Positions 1-59,643 of a stretch of 64,000 nt of DNA are shown in pieces (the first letter of the stretch is position 1; each line of letters starts with the position of its first letter). This DNA is from a candidate division FCPU426 bacterium. Lineage in GTDB: Bacteria; Oederibacteriota; Muellerivitia; Muellerivitales; Muellerivitaceae. The position numbers and the translations under genes are program-made. Below the pieces are notes generated by a model. That model worked only from the letters and a program-made list of their open reading frames with translations. It was not told the DNA's origin and did no database searches. The DNA is taken from positions 64,001-128,000 of the forward strand of contig CAWCKJ010000002.1 in the NCBI GenBank assembly GCA_963796105.1. Reading direction: 5' to 3'.

Positions 1-96
1 TTTGCTCTTGCGCCCGATGGGCGTTATGGTCAAGTCTGCGGACCGTGGAAAAATCAATTTTTCCATCGGCCGTCAGCTGGACCATAGAACATGATC
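1..96 (-). repeat. ~110-bp multi-hairpin element (family D), truncated by window edge
   Basis: Reverse complement aligns with 33618-33728 (gacggccgatggaaaaatt-atttttccacggtccgcag...cgcccatcgggcgcaa). Confidence 0.85.
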
Positions 97-132
97 AAAA
101 TGCGCTTTAAATCCCATGTACCCATGTATCCG

Positions 133-207
133 TGCCGAACATCTATAAAAATATCTTGAGATCAGTACTGTACCAGCCTCCTTCAACTTCTTTATGGTGG
201 GCTGGCA
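133..207 (+). repeat. ~75-bp double-hairpin unit, flanked by CG/CG
   Basis: TGCCGA..TCAGTA-ctg-TACCAGCC..GGCTGGCA; removal restores atccgtggc. Confidence 0.9.
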
Positions 208-279
208 CGTGGCAAAATAACTTTTTGAATTTAACTGTGTCTCTGTGTGGTGCGAAGCACCGCTGTGGTGAATACGTTT

Positions 280-3200
280 TTAATGAATTACGGCTATCTT
301 GCCGCTGAAAGTTTGGCTCCCCGCCTGGATCTTGTAAATATAGAGCCCCGCCGCTATTGGCGCCCCGGACTGGTTTCTTAGGTTCCAAGTCAGCGTATTC
401 AATCCCGGTTGTCCCAGGAAGCTTACGGAATAAACCAGCTCGCCCGTGAGGTTGTAGAGGTTCAATTGGACCGGCGTGGCTCCTGTGAGCGTGAGGCGGA
501 ATTGGATGGGCGTCCCGTCCTGGGAAATATTCGGCCAAGCGGCGGCGGAGTTAGAAATGAGGAATGAGGAGTTAGGGGTGGGAGACAAGGTATAAGTAGG
601 AGTTAGGAGTGGGGAGTTAGGAGTTAATGTCAAAGTCGGGGTGGCTGTGTTGTAAGGTGTCGCGGTGTAAGAGGGCGTAGCTGAAGGCGAAGCGGTGAGG
701 GACGCCGTAGGCGTCATCGAATCCGTCGAGGTGGGCGTGGAAGTGGATGTGCTTGTGGATGTGGGGGTAGGCGTAAAGGTGCAGGTCGAAGTGGGGGGCG
801 CTGGGGTGCAGGTGGAAGTGGGTGTTGGGGAAGGGGTAGGGGTGGGTTCCAGCCTGACGCCGAAAACCACGTTCATGATCCTGCCGCCCGTGGGGGCGGA
901 GGTGAACTCGTCCACTTCCTTGTTCCCGCAGTCCACCACGAACAGGTTCCCAGTGGGGTCGTAGGCCAGACAGCTCGGGTTATAGAAATTCGTGACACCC
1001 GCCCCGTCGATCTCGCCCAGGTAGCCTCCCTGGTTCGCGGCGTAAACAACCCGGTTGTTATCCCAGTCGGTGATGAATAGATTTCCCTGCTTGTCCGTCA
1101 CGATCCCGCCGCTGTAGCTACCGAGAGCTTTGGGCCATCCTGTCCCGTTGAAGGAATTAACGAGGGTATAGGATGAGTTGTATTCGGCGATGGAGACGCC
1201 GGAGTTGTTGAGGTAATAGTCCACGAAGTAGTTGCCGTTCCCGTCGAGGGCCACGTCCTCGCAGTAATTGGTGCTCGAGGCGGGGATGATGTTCGATCCG
1301 CTGTCATCCGCCCAGGCCAGGGACCAGATTCCGTTGTCATCGGCCACCAGCAGGTTCCCATTGGGGTCGATCCTGACGCTGTTGTCCAGCACGCAATTTC
1401 CAAGTCCTGTCCAGGTGTAGTCGTAAACCGCCGAGCTGGCGCCGAGTTTGTAGCCCACCACGCCTGTCCCGTACTCGGGGATGTAAAGCTCGTCGCTGGA
1501 ATCAATGGCCAGGCTTCCGGTGTATCCGCCGGTGGTGGGGATGGTATAGAGCAGGGTCTGCCCGGTGATGTCGTACACGTACACGTTGGAGTCCGCGTCG
1601 CCGTCGTCCACCACGAGGAAACTCACCCCGTCGGAGGCCACGCTCCAGGGGTTGGTGGTGCCAGCCGGGCTGAAAACGTTGGGCACGTAACTGGTGGTCA
1701 GGTTCCAAGAGCCGATGGGGATGGTGGTCTGAGTGGAAGTGACGGTGGGCGTGAAGGAGGATTGCGCTATGGCCGTCTGGGTCTCCTGCGCCTGGTAAGT
1801 GGCGGTGGGGGCGGTGGTTCCGGTCATGTTGGGGGTAGGGGTATTTGTTTTGGTGAGAGTGGGCGTGAGCGTGTTCGTGGGTGTGTTGGTCACGGACGGG
1901 GTGTAGGAATAAGTATAGGTATAGGTAAAGGTATTGGTGTAAGTAGGAGTAGCAGTGGGGGTATTGGTGGGTGTGTTCGTCGGTGTCGCGGTTTTGGTGG
2001 GAGACAAAGTAATAGTGGGGGTGCTAGTTGGGGAAGGCGTCGGGGTGGCCGTCGGGTTGCAGTTGGCCGCGTAAAACTCAACCGCCAAAATGTCTGAAAT
2101 GGAAGCGCCGCTTAAAACGCAGGTCACAGGGTAGCTGTTGATTGCCGTTGCGGTACGGTAGTTTCCCTCGGTGGAAAAGCCGGTATTGGAAAACGACCAT
2201 TCCGGGGTTTCCCCGGTTCCGGTCAAGGTAAAGGTCCTGCTGTTATAGACGTTGAATAATCCCACCACGATGGAGTTTTGCTGGCTTGTGGAAAAGGGCA
2301 TGGATGGATTTGCCGTTGAGGCAAGAACCGTCGAGGCGGAGTTGCCGAGGGGAGCGATTGGGTCCATCCCCGTGAAAACCATGGCGCCGATATCCATGGT
2401 TTGGGCGGCGGAAGCCGTGATCACGATGTTCCGGGACGCGCCGAGACCGGTCATTTGGGAACTGGGCAGGTAAAAGATGAAATTCTCGTGGCCGTTTGCG
2501 GTATCCGTGACACCCAAGGCGGGCACCAGGTTGACATTGTTGTAAGTGGCGGTGTTGATGGTGGCGGTAGTGTTTTTTATGGAGACTTGGACCACCAGGA
2601 GGGGGTTGGTTACTGGGGTGGCGATATTCAAGGCGAGAGTGTAGGTGTTGACGCTCCCGGGGAACGCGCTGGTCACGGTGGAGAAAGCGGATTGGCAGGT
2701 GACATAAGCCGTGTCCGTGGGTGTCTGGGTGGGAGTGGATGTATTCGTGGATGTCGGGGTATTGGTAGGCGTGGAAGTTTTCGTCGGGGTTAGGGTGATG
2801 GTGGGCGTGGCTGTTTTGGTGGGGGTAAGAGTGATGGTGGGCGTGGAGGTATTCGTGGAAGTGATAGTCGGCGTCGAGGTTTTGGTCGGCGTGGGAGTGA
2901 TGGTGGGTGTGTTGGTGATCGTGGGCGTCGAGGTCCAGGACGGCACGAAACCCACGCAGGAGTTGGCGTAAACCTGGTAGCTAAGTGTGCTCGCCGCGCC
3001 AGCTGTCCCGTTGGCCGTGAAGGGGTCCTGCATGCCATTATAGGGCCCGCCCGAGATGCCCTCGGAGTAGCTGGTTCCTGATCCGGTGCAGGCGACCGTG
3101 CCCGTGGTGCCGGTCACGTAAAACGCGAGCCAGTAGCTTCCGGCCGGAAGGGCAGTCGCGGGAACCGGCAGGGTATTCAATCCGGCGGTCACGGCAGTCT

Positions 3201-34701: not shown

Positions 34702-35700
34702 GGGGTCAGGTCTTCATTTTATATTAACTCCTGGTACAATACATGAATGGCCCGACCCCTCCGAGTGCACTTTGAAGGCGCTGTGTATCACGTGACTTCC
34801 CGCGGGAATGAACGGGGGGACATTGTCCGTTCGGATCAAGACCGGGAATTGTTTTTGCGCGTTTTGTCCCATGTGGTGGAAGACCACCATGTGTTGTGCC
34901 ACGCCTGGGTGCTGATGAATAATCATTATCATCTGCTTCTTGAAACACCGGAAGCCAACTTATCGAAAGCCATCCGGCATCTCAATGGGGTCTATACCCA
35001 GAAATTCAACAGGACCCATGACCGGGTGGGTCATTTATTCCAGGGCCGTTTCAAGGCCATCCATGTGGAGAAAGGCTCTCATTTGTTGGAACTGTGCAGG
35101 TATTTGGCGTTGAATCCTGTGCGAGCCGGCATGGTCAAGCATCCCCGGGAGTGGCGATGGAGCAGTTACCGCGCGACAGCGGGGGTCTCCGGGAAGGAGC
35201 CATGGCTTGAGGTGAATTGGGTTTTGAGCCAATTCGGGAAGCGTTTTAAGGTGGCCCAAGCTTCTTACAGGAAATTTGTTTTGGAGGGGATTGGGAAAAA
35301 GGGGTCGCCCTGGGATGAGATGGGCGGGAGCATTTATTACGGAGGAGAGGCGCTCAAGGAGAAGTTAAAGGGGTTGTTGAAGCGCAAAGACCCGGAGATA
35401 CCCTTAAAACATCACCGGATTGAGAGGCCGGCGGCAATGGAGGTGCTGAAACAAGTGTCGAGAGCCTATCGGGTGGATGAGAAAGTGATCACGGACAAAC
35501 GGCATCAAGTGAACGAGGCAAGGGATGTGGGCATGTACTTATTGCGGAAAAGATCGGGAATGTCTCTGGGGGAAATCGCGTCAAAGTTCGGCGTGAAATA
35601 CCCGGCGGTGGGAAATAGGCTGGCGGTGATGAGAAAGAAAGTTGAGACGGATCCTGGATTCAGGGCCAAGTTAGATAATATAAAATGAAGACCTGACCCC
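34702..35700 (+). mobile_element. RAYT-type element bounded by perfect 25-bp inverted repeats
   Basis: GGGGTCAGGTCTTCATTTTATATTA at 34702-34726 and exact reverse complement at 35676-35700. Confidence 0.8.
34747..35688 (+). CDS. REP-associated tyrosine (Y1/HUH) transposase with C-terminal DnaA-like HTH
   Basis: MARPLR, YHVTSRGN, MNNHYHLL (HUH), GHLFQGRF, RYLALNPVRAG, WSSY. Confidence 0.9.
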   Translation: MARPLRVHFEGAVYHVTSRGNERGDIVRSDQDRELFLRVLSHVVEDHHVLCHAWVLMNNHYHLLLETPEANLSKAIRHLNGVYTQKFNRTHDRVGHLFQGRFKAIHVEKGSHLLELCRYLALNPVRAGMVKHPREWRWSSYRATAGVSGKEPWLEVNWVLSQFGKRFKVAQASYRKFVLEGIGKKGSPWDEMGGSIYYGGEALKEKLKGLLKRKDPEIPLKHHRIERPAAMEVLKQVSRAYRVDEKVITDKRHQVNEARDVGMYLLRKRSGMSLGEIASKFGVKYPAVGNRLAVMRKKVETDPGFRAKLDNIK

Positions 35701-48534: not shown

Positions 48535-48795
48535 GCGGAAAAAGGGGAGGTGAATTATCCAACTAGAACCCTGTACAAGATCGCCGATGCCCTGGGATGC
48601 GACGTAACTGATCTCTTTACCGGCTGCCAAGGCCCCGGGCTTGCCCGGGGGCCTAGCCGTGTACTTGGGCGGGATTCCATGCCCGGCCCAAGTGGCGACC
48701 CGAAGGGTCGTCCCTTGATAAAACCCACCACAGATCGGCCCGCTCCGGGGCATTCTTCCAAGAAACCAAAACCCAAAAAACACGTATTACCGTGA
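48535..48795 (+). pseudogene. XRE-family HTH remnant carrying a 99-bp in-frame insertion
   Basis: AEKGEVNYPTRTLYKIADALGCDVTDLF; N-terminal helices missing (TAG immediately upstream). Confidence 0.7.
48619..48717 (+). mobile_element. 99-bp three-hairpin element
   Basis: Homologous to 58980-59075; absent from the paralogous XRE remnant at about 55015. Confidence 0.8.
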
Positions 48796-48808: not shown

Positions 48809-49346
48809 TGTGCCAATCTTCCATAAAGATTAAATGGAGATTGGTACGATACCAGCCACCCTATTAGTTTTATGGAGGGCTGGCATGTGCCAATCTTCCA
48901 TAAAGATTAAATGGAGATTGGTACGATACCAGCCACCCTATTAGTTTTATGGAGGGCTGGCATGTGCCAATCTTCCATTAAGCATATGTGGAGATTGGTA
49001 CGATACCAGCCACCTATTAGTTTTATGGAGGGCTGGCATGTGCCAATCTTCCATTAAGCATATGTGGAGATTGGTACGATACCAGCCACCTATTAGTTTT
49101 ATGGAGGGCTGGCATGTGCCAATCTTCCATAAAGATTAAATGGAGATTGGTACGATACCAGCCACCCTATTAGTTTTATGGAGGGCTGGCATGTGCCAAT
49201 CTTCCATTAAGCATATGTGGAGATTGGTACGATACCAGCCACCTATTAGTTTTATGGAGGGCTGGCATGTGCCAATCTTCCATTAAGCATATGTGGAGAT
49301 TGGTACGATACCAGCCACCTATTAGTTTTATGGAGGGCTGGCATGT
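48809..49346 (+). repeat. Tandem array of 7 double-hairpin units (77/76-bp variants, order A A B B A B B)
   Basis: Unit starts 48809, 48886, 48963, 49039, 49115, 49192, 49268. Confidence 0.97.
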
Positions 49347-52056: not shown

Positions 52057-52295
52057 CGCCGATTTTCCATAAATCAGTTAATGAAATCGGTGCTATACCG
52101 AACTTTCCTTTTAAGCCTTATGGTGGTTTAGCATGAGTTCCTGTGCCAATCTTCCTTTAAGCATATGTGGAGATTGGTACGATACCAGCCCCCTATTAGT
52201 TTTATGGAGGGCTGGCATGTGCCAATCTTCCATAAAGATTAAATGGAGATTGGTACGATACCAGCCACCCTATTAGTTTTATGGAGGGCTGGCAT
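52057..52295 (+). repeat. Three further double-hairpin units right of IS256
   Basis: Divergent copy 52057-52133, then B-type and A-type copies from 52142. Confidence 0.9.
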
Positions 52296-53963: not shown

Positions 53964-54949
53964 CATGCTTCTGTATTAAGTGACCCTTGAAATAAAGGAA
54001 TACATAGGTATACTGTCCGCTACGGGAGGTGGTACATGAGCTACCAGCGGATGAAAAGCATTAAAATTCTGAGGAAAATCCACACGGAAGAAGAAGCCCG
54101 CCAATGGGTGTGGAGATGCCGTTTCGGCGGGAAAGACTTTGTTTGTCCCCAATGTGAGGGCGAAAGCTTCTGGCAACACCAGGCCAAGCCTGAAGTGAGG
54201 GAATGTGACTATTGCCGGAAACGTCTTCGGCTTCGCGCCGGGACGATTTTTGAAAGCTCCAAGCTGCCTCTTTTAACCTGGGTCAGGGCCATCAGTTTGA
54301 TGATGCAGGGCAAACGGGGTATTTCGGCCCTGGAACTGAAGCGGCATTTAAATCTTTCGGATCATTCGGCATGGCTTCTATTGCATAAGATCCGGGAAGG
54401 TCTTAGGCAAAAGGACGAAAGCTATACTCTAAAGGGCGTCATTGAGTTGGATGGGGCGGTTTTTGGGAAAAAGGCCAAGGAAAACCAAGTGGAAGTCTTG
54501 GTGGCGGTGGAAAGCAAGGAATGGGTGGATGAGAATGGTTGCAAGAAGGAAAAAGCGGGTTTTGCCAAGGTGAAGGTAGCTATGGAAACCAAGTGGGAGA
54601 GCCAGGAATTCGTGAATCAGACTATGGAAAAAGGCTCTTTCCTCAACACAGATGCTTCGCCAGCCTTGCGTGAACTCAAAGGAGTGGAGGCAGACTACCG
54701 GGTGATGGCCAATGACCCGAAAGAGTTGGAAAGTTGGTTGCCCTGGGTACACCGGTTCATTTCCAACGCCAAGGCCTGGATCATTGGAACTCATCATGGC
54801 GTTGATGCTAAGTATTTAGGCCGGTATCTAAGTGAATATGCCTATCGGTTCAACCGTCGTCATGATCCCGATTCCTTATTTCACCGTGCTTTGACCGCAT
54901 GTGCCTTAGCAAAACCCATTACAGCACGGTCACTTTGTGCATAAGCATA
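53964..54949 (+). mobile_element. IS1595-family insertion sequence
   Basis: Imperfect TIRs ATGCTTCTGTATTAAGTGACC / GGTCACTTTGTGCATAAGCAT; GAATTATC direct repeat at 53956-53963 and 54950-54957. Confidence 0.9.
54036..54944 (+). CDS. IS1595-family transposase
   Basis: CPQC/CDYC zinc ribbon, GTIFESSKLPL, IELD, YLSEYAYRFNRR. Confidence 0.95.
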   Translation: MSYQRMKSIKILRKIHTEEEARQWVWRCRFGGKDFVCPQCEGESFWQHQAKPEVRECDYCRKRLRLRAGTIFESSKLPLLTWVRAISLMMQGKRGISALELKRHLNLSDHSAWLLLHKIREGLRQKDESYTLKGVIELDGAVFGKKAKENQVEVLVAVESKEWVDENGCKKEKAGFAKVKVAMETKWESQEFVNQTMEKGSFLNTDASPALRELKGVEADYRVMANDPKELESWLPWVHRFISNAKAWIIGTHHGVDAKYLGRYLSEYAYRFNRRHDPDSLFHRALTACALAKPITARSLCA

Positions 54950-55056
54950 GAATTATCCAATTGACACCCTTTACCGGGTCGCTATTGCCCTGGAATGCAG
55001 CGTACCTGATCTTCTTATAAGTCCCACCACGTTATGGCCCTTTACGGGGAGACTTT

Positions 55057-55267
55057 CCAAGCAGCCAAAAACCCCCAAATAGGGTTAAGTGAATTGATTC
55101 GCTGATTTCGTGTTGTTTCCTGAAATTCATAATTCAAAATTTAAAATTGATTTTCCGGGTCGTCCTTCCAAACAGCCAAAACCCACCAAAACAGGGTTAA
55201 GTGAATTGATTCGCTGATTCCGTGTGTTTTCCTGAAATTTAAAATTCAAAATTTAGAATTCAAAATT
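55057..55267 (+). repeat. Imperfect direct duplication (~110 bp) ending in AATTCAA/AATTTAA heptamer runs
   Basis: agggttaagtgaattgattcgctgatt occurs twice. Confidence 0.8.
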
Positions 55268-58595: not shown

Positions 58596-59096
58596 TTAAA
58601 TTCGACCCAAAAAATCACGGGCTTTTATGATTTCAATATCTTGATAATGGACCAGCGATAAAAGATCCTGGCGGTCACCGCTGACGATAAACGAGCAAAA
58701 TCCATCCACCGCGCATTCAAGGACGCGGTTATCGGCGGGACAGCGGCTGATGATATTAACCTTCGCGTTTGGGGTTATTATTTCGGCAATATCGAAAAGA
58801 GGTTTGGTAAGGACCCGTGTTTCATTTGGGGTCAAACCGAATTTAGCGGTTTTAAGAACACGCTTTGTTTCTTCCATCAGGAAAGGTGAGGTAATACAAG
58901 CGAATCGACGGTCTAAAGCCGCTTGAATGACCTTTAAAGGGATGCCGCCAAAAAGAAGTCCTGATACCACGACATTCGTCAAGGGACGACCCCACGGGTC
59001 GCCACTTGGGCGGGAACTGAGACTCGCCCAAATACACGGCTAGGCCCGGGAAAAATCCGGGCCAAGGAAGCCGGTATCAATGACCGCCCTAATCAA
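58596..59096 (-). pseudogene. PIN-domain toxin interrupted by a 96-bp element
   Basis: MIRAVID-[insert with in-frame TAG]-TNVVVSG...DNRVLECA...IVSGD..DLL; TTG start overlaps antitoxin stop. Confidence 0.85.
58980..59075 (-). mobile_element. 96-bp three-hairpin element
   Basis: ACCGGCT...GGCC-TAGCCGTGTA.TTGGGCG...GCCCAAGTGGCGACCCG..GGGTCGTCCCTTG shared with 48619-48717. Confidence 0.82.
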
Positions 59097-59332
59097 AAGC
59101 GCTTCCTCATTTCAGATAGGGACTCCTCGACATCAGTGGGGGTTAAACCCTTCTTTTTCAGGCGCTTCGATACGGTCTTCCTTGTCTCCTCGAATTCCTG
59201 GAGGACCATATATTTACGGACGGCTTCCCGGATGTATTCGCTCACCGTTCGGTGCTCATATTCAGCGTGCCGTTGGATATCCTTTTCAAACTGCGGCGGT
59301 AGGGAAACGGTGATGACTTTGCTGGTTCTCAT
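59093..59332 (-). CDS. CopG/ribbon-helix-helix antitoxin
   Basis: MRTSKVITVSLPP...RTVSEYIREAVRKY; GGAGG RBS. Confidence 0.88.
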   Translation of the reverse strand: MRTSKVITVSLPPQFEKDIQRHAEYEHRTVSEYIREAVRKYMVLQEFEETRKTVSKRLKKKGLTPTDVEESLSEMRKRF

Positions 59333-59643
59333 GTGGGTGACCTCCCAAGGATTTAACAGAAATTCCAATGTACTAACAAGTAATACATAGTAATAATAAT
59401 ATCCGCGCCGTTTTTTTCAATAAAAAATGAAATAAAGCGAATAATGCCTGTGGCTGCGGATTTATTCCACTGGTTCTAAGTAATTGTCTTCAATTCAAAA
59501 TTAAAAATTTAGAATTTGGATTTATTGAATCCCATGAATCCCATGAATCCCAGCTAAATGAAGATGTTGGTTTTGATGTTTTTAGTCTTACCTAAGGGAC
59601 GCTTTACCGTGTACCCCGTGGTTCTGAAAGAACCTGTGGTGAA

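Follow-up and report, generated by a model that had tools for sequence, protein, structure and literature searches.

A PIN toxin gene in a candidate division FCPU426 bacterium, very probably disrupted by a copy of a lineage-restricted, non-autonomous mobile hairpin repeat

The Rickettsia palindromic elements (RPEs; Ogata et al. 2000) are described in PMC10969869 and PMC3184786 as hairpin repeats of ~100-150 bp that lie in frame inside genes: the host open reading frame (ORF) stays open, orthologues are found without the insert, and no obvious transposase is associated with them. The CGTC-tagged REPs, according to Di Nocera, De Gregorio and Rocco 2013 (PMC3733652), show G-T pairing, include intragenic copies and have no dedicated transposase; they occur as free-standing units of 20-40 bp, mostly as head-to-head dimers, and the unit consists of a stem of 8-9 bp, a loop of 4-5 nt, a terminal CGTC and a short CCA-like tail. 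Classical MITEs, such as Correia elements, ERIC and RUP, carry terminal inverted repeats and are flanked by target-site duplications (PMC10969869 and PMC3184786).

Here we analysed a 64,000-nt stretch of a bacterial genome (the window), in which a toxin gene is interrupted by a short repeat. We consider it very likely that the gene was disrupted by a copy of a lineage-restricted, non-autonomous mobile hairpin repeat of ~99 bp. In its behaviour this repeat is closest to the RPEs and to the intragenic REPs presented in PMC10969869, PMC3184786 and PMC3733652. The features of the toxin locus are the following:

58980..59075, minus strand: copy of the element, 96 bp, a three-hairpin repeat (from the sequence; covariance model 95.3 bits)
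59076..59096, minus strand: codons 1-7 of the PIN toxin (TTG start, ending Ile-Asp), severed from the rest of the gene (from the sequence and alignment)
58596..58979, minus strand: remainder of the PIN_3 toxin, 127 codons plus stop (Pfam, NCBIfam, alignment)
58596-58982, minus strand: longest toxin ORF, starting at the TTG that closes the element (ORF list)
59093..59368, minus strand: ribbon-helix-helix (RHH) antitoxin gene, intact (RHH_1 match)
59393..59420, minus strand: promoter-like site upstream of the antitoxin, TTGAAA-16-TATTAT, 10 of 12 (consensus match only)

The 96-bp insert splits the D-T-N motif of the PIN_3 toxin gene between its Asp (GAT) and Thr (ACG) codons. Read from 59096 to 58596 on the minus strand, one frame runs through seven toxin residues, 32 element codons and then T-N-V-V-V-S-G with the rest of the protein; the element keeps the frame and contains one TAG, codon 19 of this reading frame, the in-frame stop already noted in the preliminary description. 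That description had also proposed that removal of 58980-59075 restores a PIN toxin coupled to the RHH antitoxin. This is borne out by the alignment, in which the seven upstream residues joined to the downstream fragment are gapless at the junction against 11 of 11 homologues from related genomes, and by the antitoxin stop and toxin TTG start, which overlap as TTGA. The closest of the 11 homologues is 60% identical and starts L-I-R-A-V-V-D-T-N-V, and a metagenome contig of a relative carries an intact pair, an RHH gene with a 135-aa PIN protein that is 65% identical.

The 128-aa ORF downstream of the break covers positions 6-114 of the 115-position Pfam profile PIN_3 (E 1.4e-14), and what has been severed is therefore no more than the first strand, which bears the first catalytic Asp; the ORF also matches NCBIfam TIGR00305. 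In this remainder the other conserved acidic positions are kept (the E in MEET, the D in ADN and the D in SGD) and there are no stops or frameshifts beyond the element. The antitoxin ORF matches RHH_1 with an E of 1.6e-4. The locus thus has the type II toxin-antitoxin layout, a PIN domain with its acidic residues and an overlapping antitoxin gene upstream, with the toxin now interrupted. A 206-nt contig from a public DNA run, which may be the source sample itself, spans 58934-59139 in the filled form with zero differences, while the same site searched in two more runs of that study gave short unlike pieces only. When an orthologous empty PIN site was sought in the sister genome, G001, the element alone was matched, the whole locus being absent there.

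A homologue of the insert had been reported in a remnant of an XRE-type gene in the window and absent from a paralogue, and both parts of that report agree with the DNA alignment:

48619..48717, plus strand: copy of the element, 99 bp, in a helix-turn-helix (XRE-type) gene remnant, with the frame open across it (alignment, covariance model)
54950..55078, plus strand: paralogous helix-turn-helix remnant without the element, the empty site lying between 55016 and 55017 (DNA alignment)

The 48619-48717 copy and the toxin copy share 83% identity per column in an alignment of 139 columns, which includes ~20 unrelated flanking bases on each side. The empty paralogue reads GATCTTCTT^ATAAGTCC and the filled remnant GATCTCTTT-99 bp-ATAAAACC (here and below a caret marks the insertion point), so that the element is missing to the base. 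Directly upstream of the paralogous remnant lies a 302-aa ORF (window 54036-54944) that resembles an ISXO2/IS1595 zinc-ribbon transposase, an impression gained from its sequence.

The three hairpins of the preliminary description, said to keep their stems despite sequence change, are recovered in the family consensus as four helices: an outer stem in which ACCGGCU pairs with AGCCG.GU, hairpin 1 within this outer stem, hairpin 2 (ACUUGGSCGGG...CCCGSCCAAGU) and hairpin 3 (GGCGACC-loop-GGUCGUC), followed by a five-base tail, CCTTG. The minimum free energies are -49 and -59.5 kcal/mol, with z values of -4.6 and -3.7. Over 39 copies from 13 genomes, in an alignment that was fitted to the covariance model and hence favours pairing, 96.1% of the cells pair and 20 of the 31 pairs are changed on both sides. 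The observed pairing and covariation are reached by none of 500 column shuffles, and pairing falls to 31-47% when the partners are slid by 1-3 columns; RNAalifold, run independently on 14 copies, finds 6 compensatory pairs. Pairs of the G-T type number 69 and those of the A-C type 17 (42 and 17 without one near-fixed G-T pair), counts that are taken from related copies and do not represent independent events. This excess of G-T over A-C indicates that the structure was selected in one strand only, either as RNA or as single-stranded DNA. Terminal inverted repeats are absent: the 5' end, ACCGGCTG, pairs with internal positions 39-46 and not with the 3' end, GTCGTCCCTTG.

A search of the whole 4.98-Mb genome by iterated nhmmer, at an E of 1e-3 or better, gave 31 matches that correspond to 29 loci, two copies being split by nested insertions. 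The covariance model, derived from 14 full-length copies, gave 22 matches in this genome, and two further long-variant copies lie beyond the nhmmer loci; all searches together place the element at ~31 loci, in both orientations and at varied lengths. The modal length is 99 bp (12 of 39 aligned copies) and the remainder measure 89-101 or 107-209 bp. There are also short variants of 50-52 bp from which the middle is missing, and a variant of ~124 bp with an extra small hairpin within hairpin 3. The nested inserts of the two split copies, 71 and 100 nt long, come from a different repeat.

Two other repeats were seen beside the element (contigs are designated C with a number, C2 being the contig of the window). 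A 76-bp unit forms seven tandem repeats with 96% matches at window 48809-49346 and is found again at 52168-52286; dozens of copies are scattered through this genome and the sister genome, and the unit is nested in two element copies (C4:617941-618011 and C3:705364-705463) and in a long-variant copy on C12. The second is a small hairpin, present at 32 loci (e.g., C2:53895, C4:843189, C3:665933 and C4:1410094), whose loop, GCTGCGG(A/T)GC, is conserved and whose stems covary freely. It is the module found in hairpin 3 of the long element variant, occurs in at least two other repeat families and in the right inverted repeat of some tyrosine-transposase units, and looks like a protein-binding hairpin that is itself inserted.

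Among relatives, where genome incompleteness may conceal copies, the covariance model had matches in 12 of the 24 other genomes tested from the host's taxonomic family, 15 of these matches being in the sister genome G001; none of 16 genomes from nine other families of the phylum had any. A two-motif pattern scan of one genome per species, covering 185,579 species and possibly leaving out near relatives, returned one further match and no lead to an autonomous element. The Rfam search suggested earlier produced no matching family: the window had no matches at the gathering threshold, and three other copy-bearing loci, examined at E up to 1, had nothing at the element and three chance-level matches elsewhere. 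A literature search by kind of element, not by sequence, found no published description of this repeat family. The element is very likely a lineage-restricted, non-autonomous mobile repeat.

Four empty sites define how it inserts: the paralogue in the window and, in G001, a glycosyltransferase gene, the ribD-ribE spacer and the lpdA-lipB spacer. In the glycosyltransferase gene the empty site of G001 reads TATTTGGAC^GAAGAA and the filled site TATTTGG-99 bp-ACGGGGAA. Between filled and empty sites the element is the sole difference and the insertion is seamless; there is no target-site duplication, since the filled and empty forms of the XRE paralogue, the glycosyltransferase and lpdA-lipB share no more than 1-3 nt of ambiguous sequence (A, AC or GAC). 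Insertion between T and A, as first proposed, is what is found at the toxin (GAT^ACG), and family-wide it extends to a target WTTK^AY, obtained from 33 left and 21 right flanks. On the left, T is present in 16 of 33 flanks at -4, 22 of 33 at -3 and 25 of 33 at -2, with T or G in 30 of 33 at -1; on the right, A occupies +1 in 20 of 21 flanks, and 19 of 21 have C or T at +2. The 3' end of the element with its flank, CTTG^AC, is similar to this target. Since the toxin GAT^ACG, the Asp codon of the glycosyltransferase (G^AC) and the Asp codon of a second PIN gene (see below) all fit the same preference, a special attraction to toxin motifs is needless. Although G001 has 15 copies elsewhere, the three orthologous loci checked there are all empty (3 of 3), which means that the family has been mobile since these species diverged. 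Its ends are sharp, its target can be read and its sites differ in the sister genome, so that the family makes a usable test case for how such repeats move.

Against the systems described above, the likeness to RPEs is one of behaviour: a hairpin repeat lies in frame, the ORF stays open and the orthologues are empty. In the RPEs, however, most copies are intragenic and in frame, whereas here 2 of ~31 loci are well-supported cases of a retained ORF, most of the others being intergenic or disruptive. A further difference is that the element copies are no more open-framed than shuffled sequences (2.72 vs 2.82 open frames of 6 per copy), which indicates that the element is not adapted for translation. 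As to the CGTC-tagged REPs, hairpin 3 has a stem of 7-8 bp and a loop of 3-5 nt, ends its 3' arm with CGTC in most copies, has a G-T pair inside this tag in 27 of 39 copies and is followed by an unpaired tail beginning with CC. The tails differ, however, being CCTTG in the element and CCA in the REPs, and hairpin 3 is the third module of a 99-bp unit, 10 of its 11 exact matches lying inside the element and 1 standing alone. Few families of hairpin repeats are known from the interior of protein-coding genes, and this one, from an uncultured candidate phylum, adds a well-defined, structurally constrained member to them, with seamless insertion, strand-specific hairpins and modular variants.

With the miniature elements derived from IS200/IS605 (PATEs) and their single-strand "peel and paste" transposition the element has in common that it lacks terminal inverted repeats and target duplication, carries hairpins near both ends, is structured in one strand and inserts seamlessly beside a short target. 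Characterised IS200/IS605 elements have strict 4-5-nt targets. The target of the element is degenerate by comparison (WTTK), a left flank whose looseness speaks against our preferred reading; its left hairpin begins at the first base, not some bases inside; the IS200 ends of this genome are unrelated to it; and a replication-strand bias is not detectable, orientation relative to local GC skew being 17 to 13, with a skew that is noisy on these contigs.

The preliminary description had considered a MITE that inactivated the toxin to be the most likely case. This stands in so far as the element is a small, non-autonomous, mobile, multicopy repeat and the toxin is broken, and MITEs too can inactivate genes or fuse to ORFs; the term does not apply in its classical sense, as the element has neither terminal inverted repeats nor target duplication. 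Nor was an autonomous IS sharing its ends found in this genome.

Among the 29 loci, two copies clearly retain an ORF, two disrupt toxins and one lies in a gene remnant, the others being intergenic or at gene ends. The first ORF-retaining copy is in a family-4 glycosyltransferase, a gene present in 25 of 25 genomes searched, where it adds a sense insert of 33 aa after G-G-Y-L-D that is missing from 9 of 9 aligned orthologues. The second is antisense and in frame, just past the signal peptide of a Sel1-repeat protein, and none of the 7 homologues compared has it. In both copies a single frame of the six is open and is the one that the gene uses, which points to survivorship or later selection. 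For annotation, the element explains the split PIN gene as well as 33-residue "extra loops" in otherwise conserved proteins.

The other toxin disruption is in a second PIN_3 gene (C2:53473-54018; L013:1184-1729), ~10.5 kb upstream of the window start, in which a 124-bp variant lies exactly at S-G-D with a frameshift and has lost the seamless junction on its right side. Other copies are found in the tail of a RhuM-family gene, at the very end of the coding sequence of one Nramp and one CheB gene, within the last codons, and upstream of rplU; the copy at ribD supplies the stop codon, formed by TG and the first A of the element. Many copies lie between co-directional genes, such as ribD-ribE and lpdA-lipB. 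At ~17 of the 29 loci the copy has the same direction as its flanking genes, at 6 it is antisense and at 6 the orientation is unclear; the sense excess has a two-sided binomial probability of ~0.03, or 0.05 when one duplicated gene pair is counted once. It had been suggested that copies insert in sense with lengths divisible by three. This describes the copies surviving in genes and not the family, which occurs in both orientations and has multiples of three in 16 of 29 near-full-length copies; "sense, in frame, divisible by three" is survivorship of copies within genes and no family rule. An apparent HicB antitoxin with an in-frame insert (C2:157123-157221) was rejected: the HicB domain begins at ORF residue 65, so the copy more likely lies upstream of the true start.

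Our preferred reading, disruption of the toxin by a copy of this mobile repeat, is as follows. The one functional strand of the element folds into the outer stem around hairpin 1, followed by hairpins 2 and 3, and insertion is seamless at WTTK^AY, with a left flank rich in T and a right flank that starts with A(C/T); one copy landed in the GAT^ACG of the toxin D-T-N motif. Translation from the toxin start would then halt at the TAG of the element after 18 residues, and a restart at its terminal TTG, predicted to be buried beside hairpin 3, would yield a product without the first catalytic Asp. In PIN/VapC nucleases the first Asp belongs to the catalytic set and its loss should abolish activity. 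By analogy with these enzymes, loss of the first Asp would kill toxin activity, and the early stop together with a restart product of this kind suggests that the toxin is inactivated, leaving the RHH antitoxin as a probable orphan. The locus offers a clean natural example of the toxin of a toxin-antitoxin pair knocked out at its catalytic motif.

The copy in the toxin gene is the most diverged full-length copy in the genome, and its changes from the consensus are mostly compensated within stems. It was probably derived from a divergent yet intact master, and for this reason its divergence provides no date for the insertion. The toxin remainder, intact despite so diverged a copy, is a point against the preferred reading, since it also fits a recent insertion from a divergent master, or selection on the fragment.

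A further point against the preferred reading is that no transposase is tied to the element. The Y1 transposase family has 16 matches in the genome. Two 532-bp IS200 units (C7:20618-21149 and C14:47555-48086) encode a 151-aa transposase and carry CCCACGGGCAAGCCCGTGG hairpins at both ends, and there are at least six derivatives of ~110 bp in which both ends are joined (e.g., C9:60491-60599 and C4:33566-33674). The IS200 end hairpins are unrelated to the element, and no cognate TnpA element with matching ends was found in this genome. Another 13 of the matches are proteins of 312-318 aa with a DnaA-like C-terminal region that score above the cut-off for the NCBIfam "REP-associated tyrosine transposase"; one of them lies in the window:

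34747-35673 (C2:98747-99673): one copy of the 312-318-aa transposase, with 12 or more other loci

These genes have inverted repeats of ~30 bp on both sides, with the motif GGGGTCAG, and the ends are unlike those of the element. Seven of the copies are 97-98% identical, and judged by sequence the unit behaves like an active insertion sequence. In arrangement and motif it matches the "TIRtron", with its GGGGWSAS motif, of Di Nocera et al. 2013 (PMC3733652). The transposase gene is present in 7 of the 12 element-bearing genomes and in 8 of the 12 without the element, and also in other families of the phylum, so nothing ties it to the element. Nor did the nhmmer matches include separated 5' and 3' halves flanking an ORF, as an autonomous relative would show. 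The strand-specific structure, the seamless insertion and the lack of inverted repeats are best fitted by single-strand handling by an HUH-type enzyme, a tentative idea that we regard as possible rather than probable; the element would then move in single-stranded form, with an HUH/tyrosine-type enzyme acting on it in trans. What moves such repeats is a question common to CGTC-type REPs and Rickettsia elements.

Of the alternatives to disruption by a mobile repeat, the one that survives best, though we judge it unlikely, is that the element has been exapted as a cis-acting RNA structure, with transcribed hairpins that act like REP/BIME elements in the stabilisation or processing of operon mRNAs; within the toxin-antitoxin operon, expression of the antitoxin would then be uncoupled from that of the toxin. 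The sense strand is the one favoured by the G-T pairs, sense copies make up ~17 of the 23 assignable loci, and many copies lie between co-directional genes or upstream of rplU. The same two arguments are used for transcribed REPs by Di Nocera et al. 2013 (PMC3733652). If the promoter-like site upstream of the antitoxin is used, the element would be transcribed in sense within the operon. Yet the orientation excess is weak, at the probabilities given above, and the sites are not conserved between the sister genomes, all three orthologous loci being empty in G001.

Slightly less probable still is a reversible genetic switch, in which precise excision at the DNA level ("peel and paste") restores GAT^ACG and hence an active toxin in some cells. 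As insertion leaves no duplication, an exact excision would give back every codon of the toxin; the hairpins are specific to one strand, as in elements that are processed in single-stranded form, the rest of the toxin has stayed intact, and Y1 transposase genes are plentiful, with 16 matches. A passenger element moved in trans by an HUH transposase of the genome, with the RHH/PIN toxin behind a removable plug, is a version of this idea to which we give equally little weight. Were it true, plug excision would provide a stochastic on-switch for a toxin-antitoxin system, and the second PIN_3 gene, hit at S-G-D, would be an older example of the same event. The removable switch had been raised as a speculative alternative in the preliminary description, and the results go against it: the further copies lie in both orientations and range from 50 to ~209 bp, the only public contig across the junction has the filled form, no enzyme is linked to the element, and the second PIN_3 gene, with its non-seamless junction and the frameshift from the 124-bp variant, looks like decay.

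Removal at the RNA or translational level, by which the element would be spliced out, bypassed or read through so that the toxin is still made, seems very improbable to us. It would be helped by the 96 nt that keep the frame with one stop only and by the very stable sense-strand structure, but Rfam, ribozymes and introns included, gave no match (the window at the gathering threshold, three other loci at E up to 1). As for a bypass, the codons on either side of the insert junctions, GAT/ACC and TTG/ACG, show by eye no match that could serve for take-off and landing; a product of read-through would have its first strand interrupted by 32 additional residues between Asp and Thr; and copies of the family occur in both orientations, some with lengths that are not multiples of three. 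An assembly artefact or chance similarity is hardly credible, for although the assembly is of metagenome type, in 16 contigs, the 206-nt contig (58934-59139) agrees independently without differences, even if its run may be the source sample, and the presence of the same element at ~31 loci here, which excludes chance similarity, is accompanied by copies in 12 other genomes.

Two minor observations concern the genes around copies of the element. The window belongs to a cluster of toxin-antitoxin-type genes at ~52-160 kb of contig C2 that has five element copies inside it; its genes include PIN_3 twice, a HicB-like gene, a nucleotidyltransferase (MNT-type), DUF5615/PIN_10 and helix-turn-helix remnants. 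In a genome of another genus, the MutS2 gene (L031; G006:C19, ORF 2-1963, minus strand) has an in-frame copy of the element, in antisense orientation, within a linker; the MutS2 of the present genome (C9:~71086-73017) has at that place an unrelated stretch of equal length, which may be an old decayed insertion or a coincidence.
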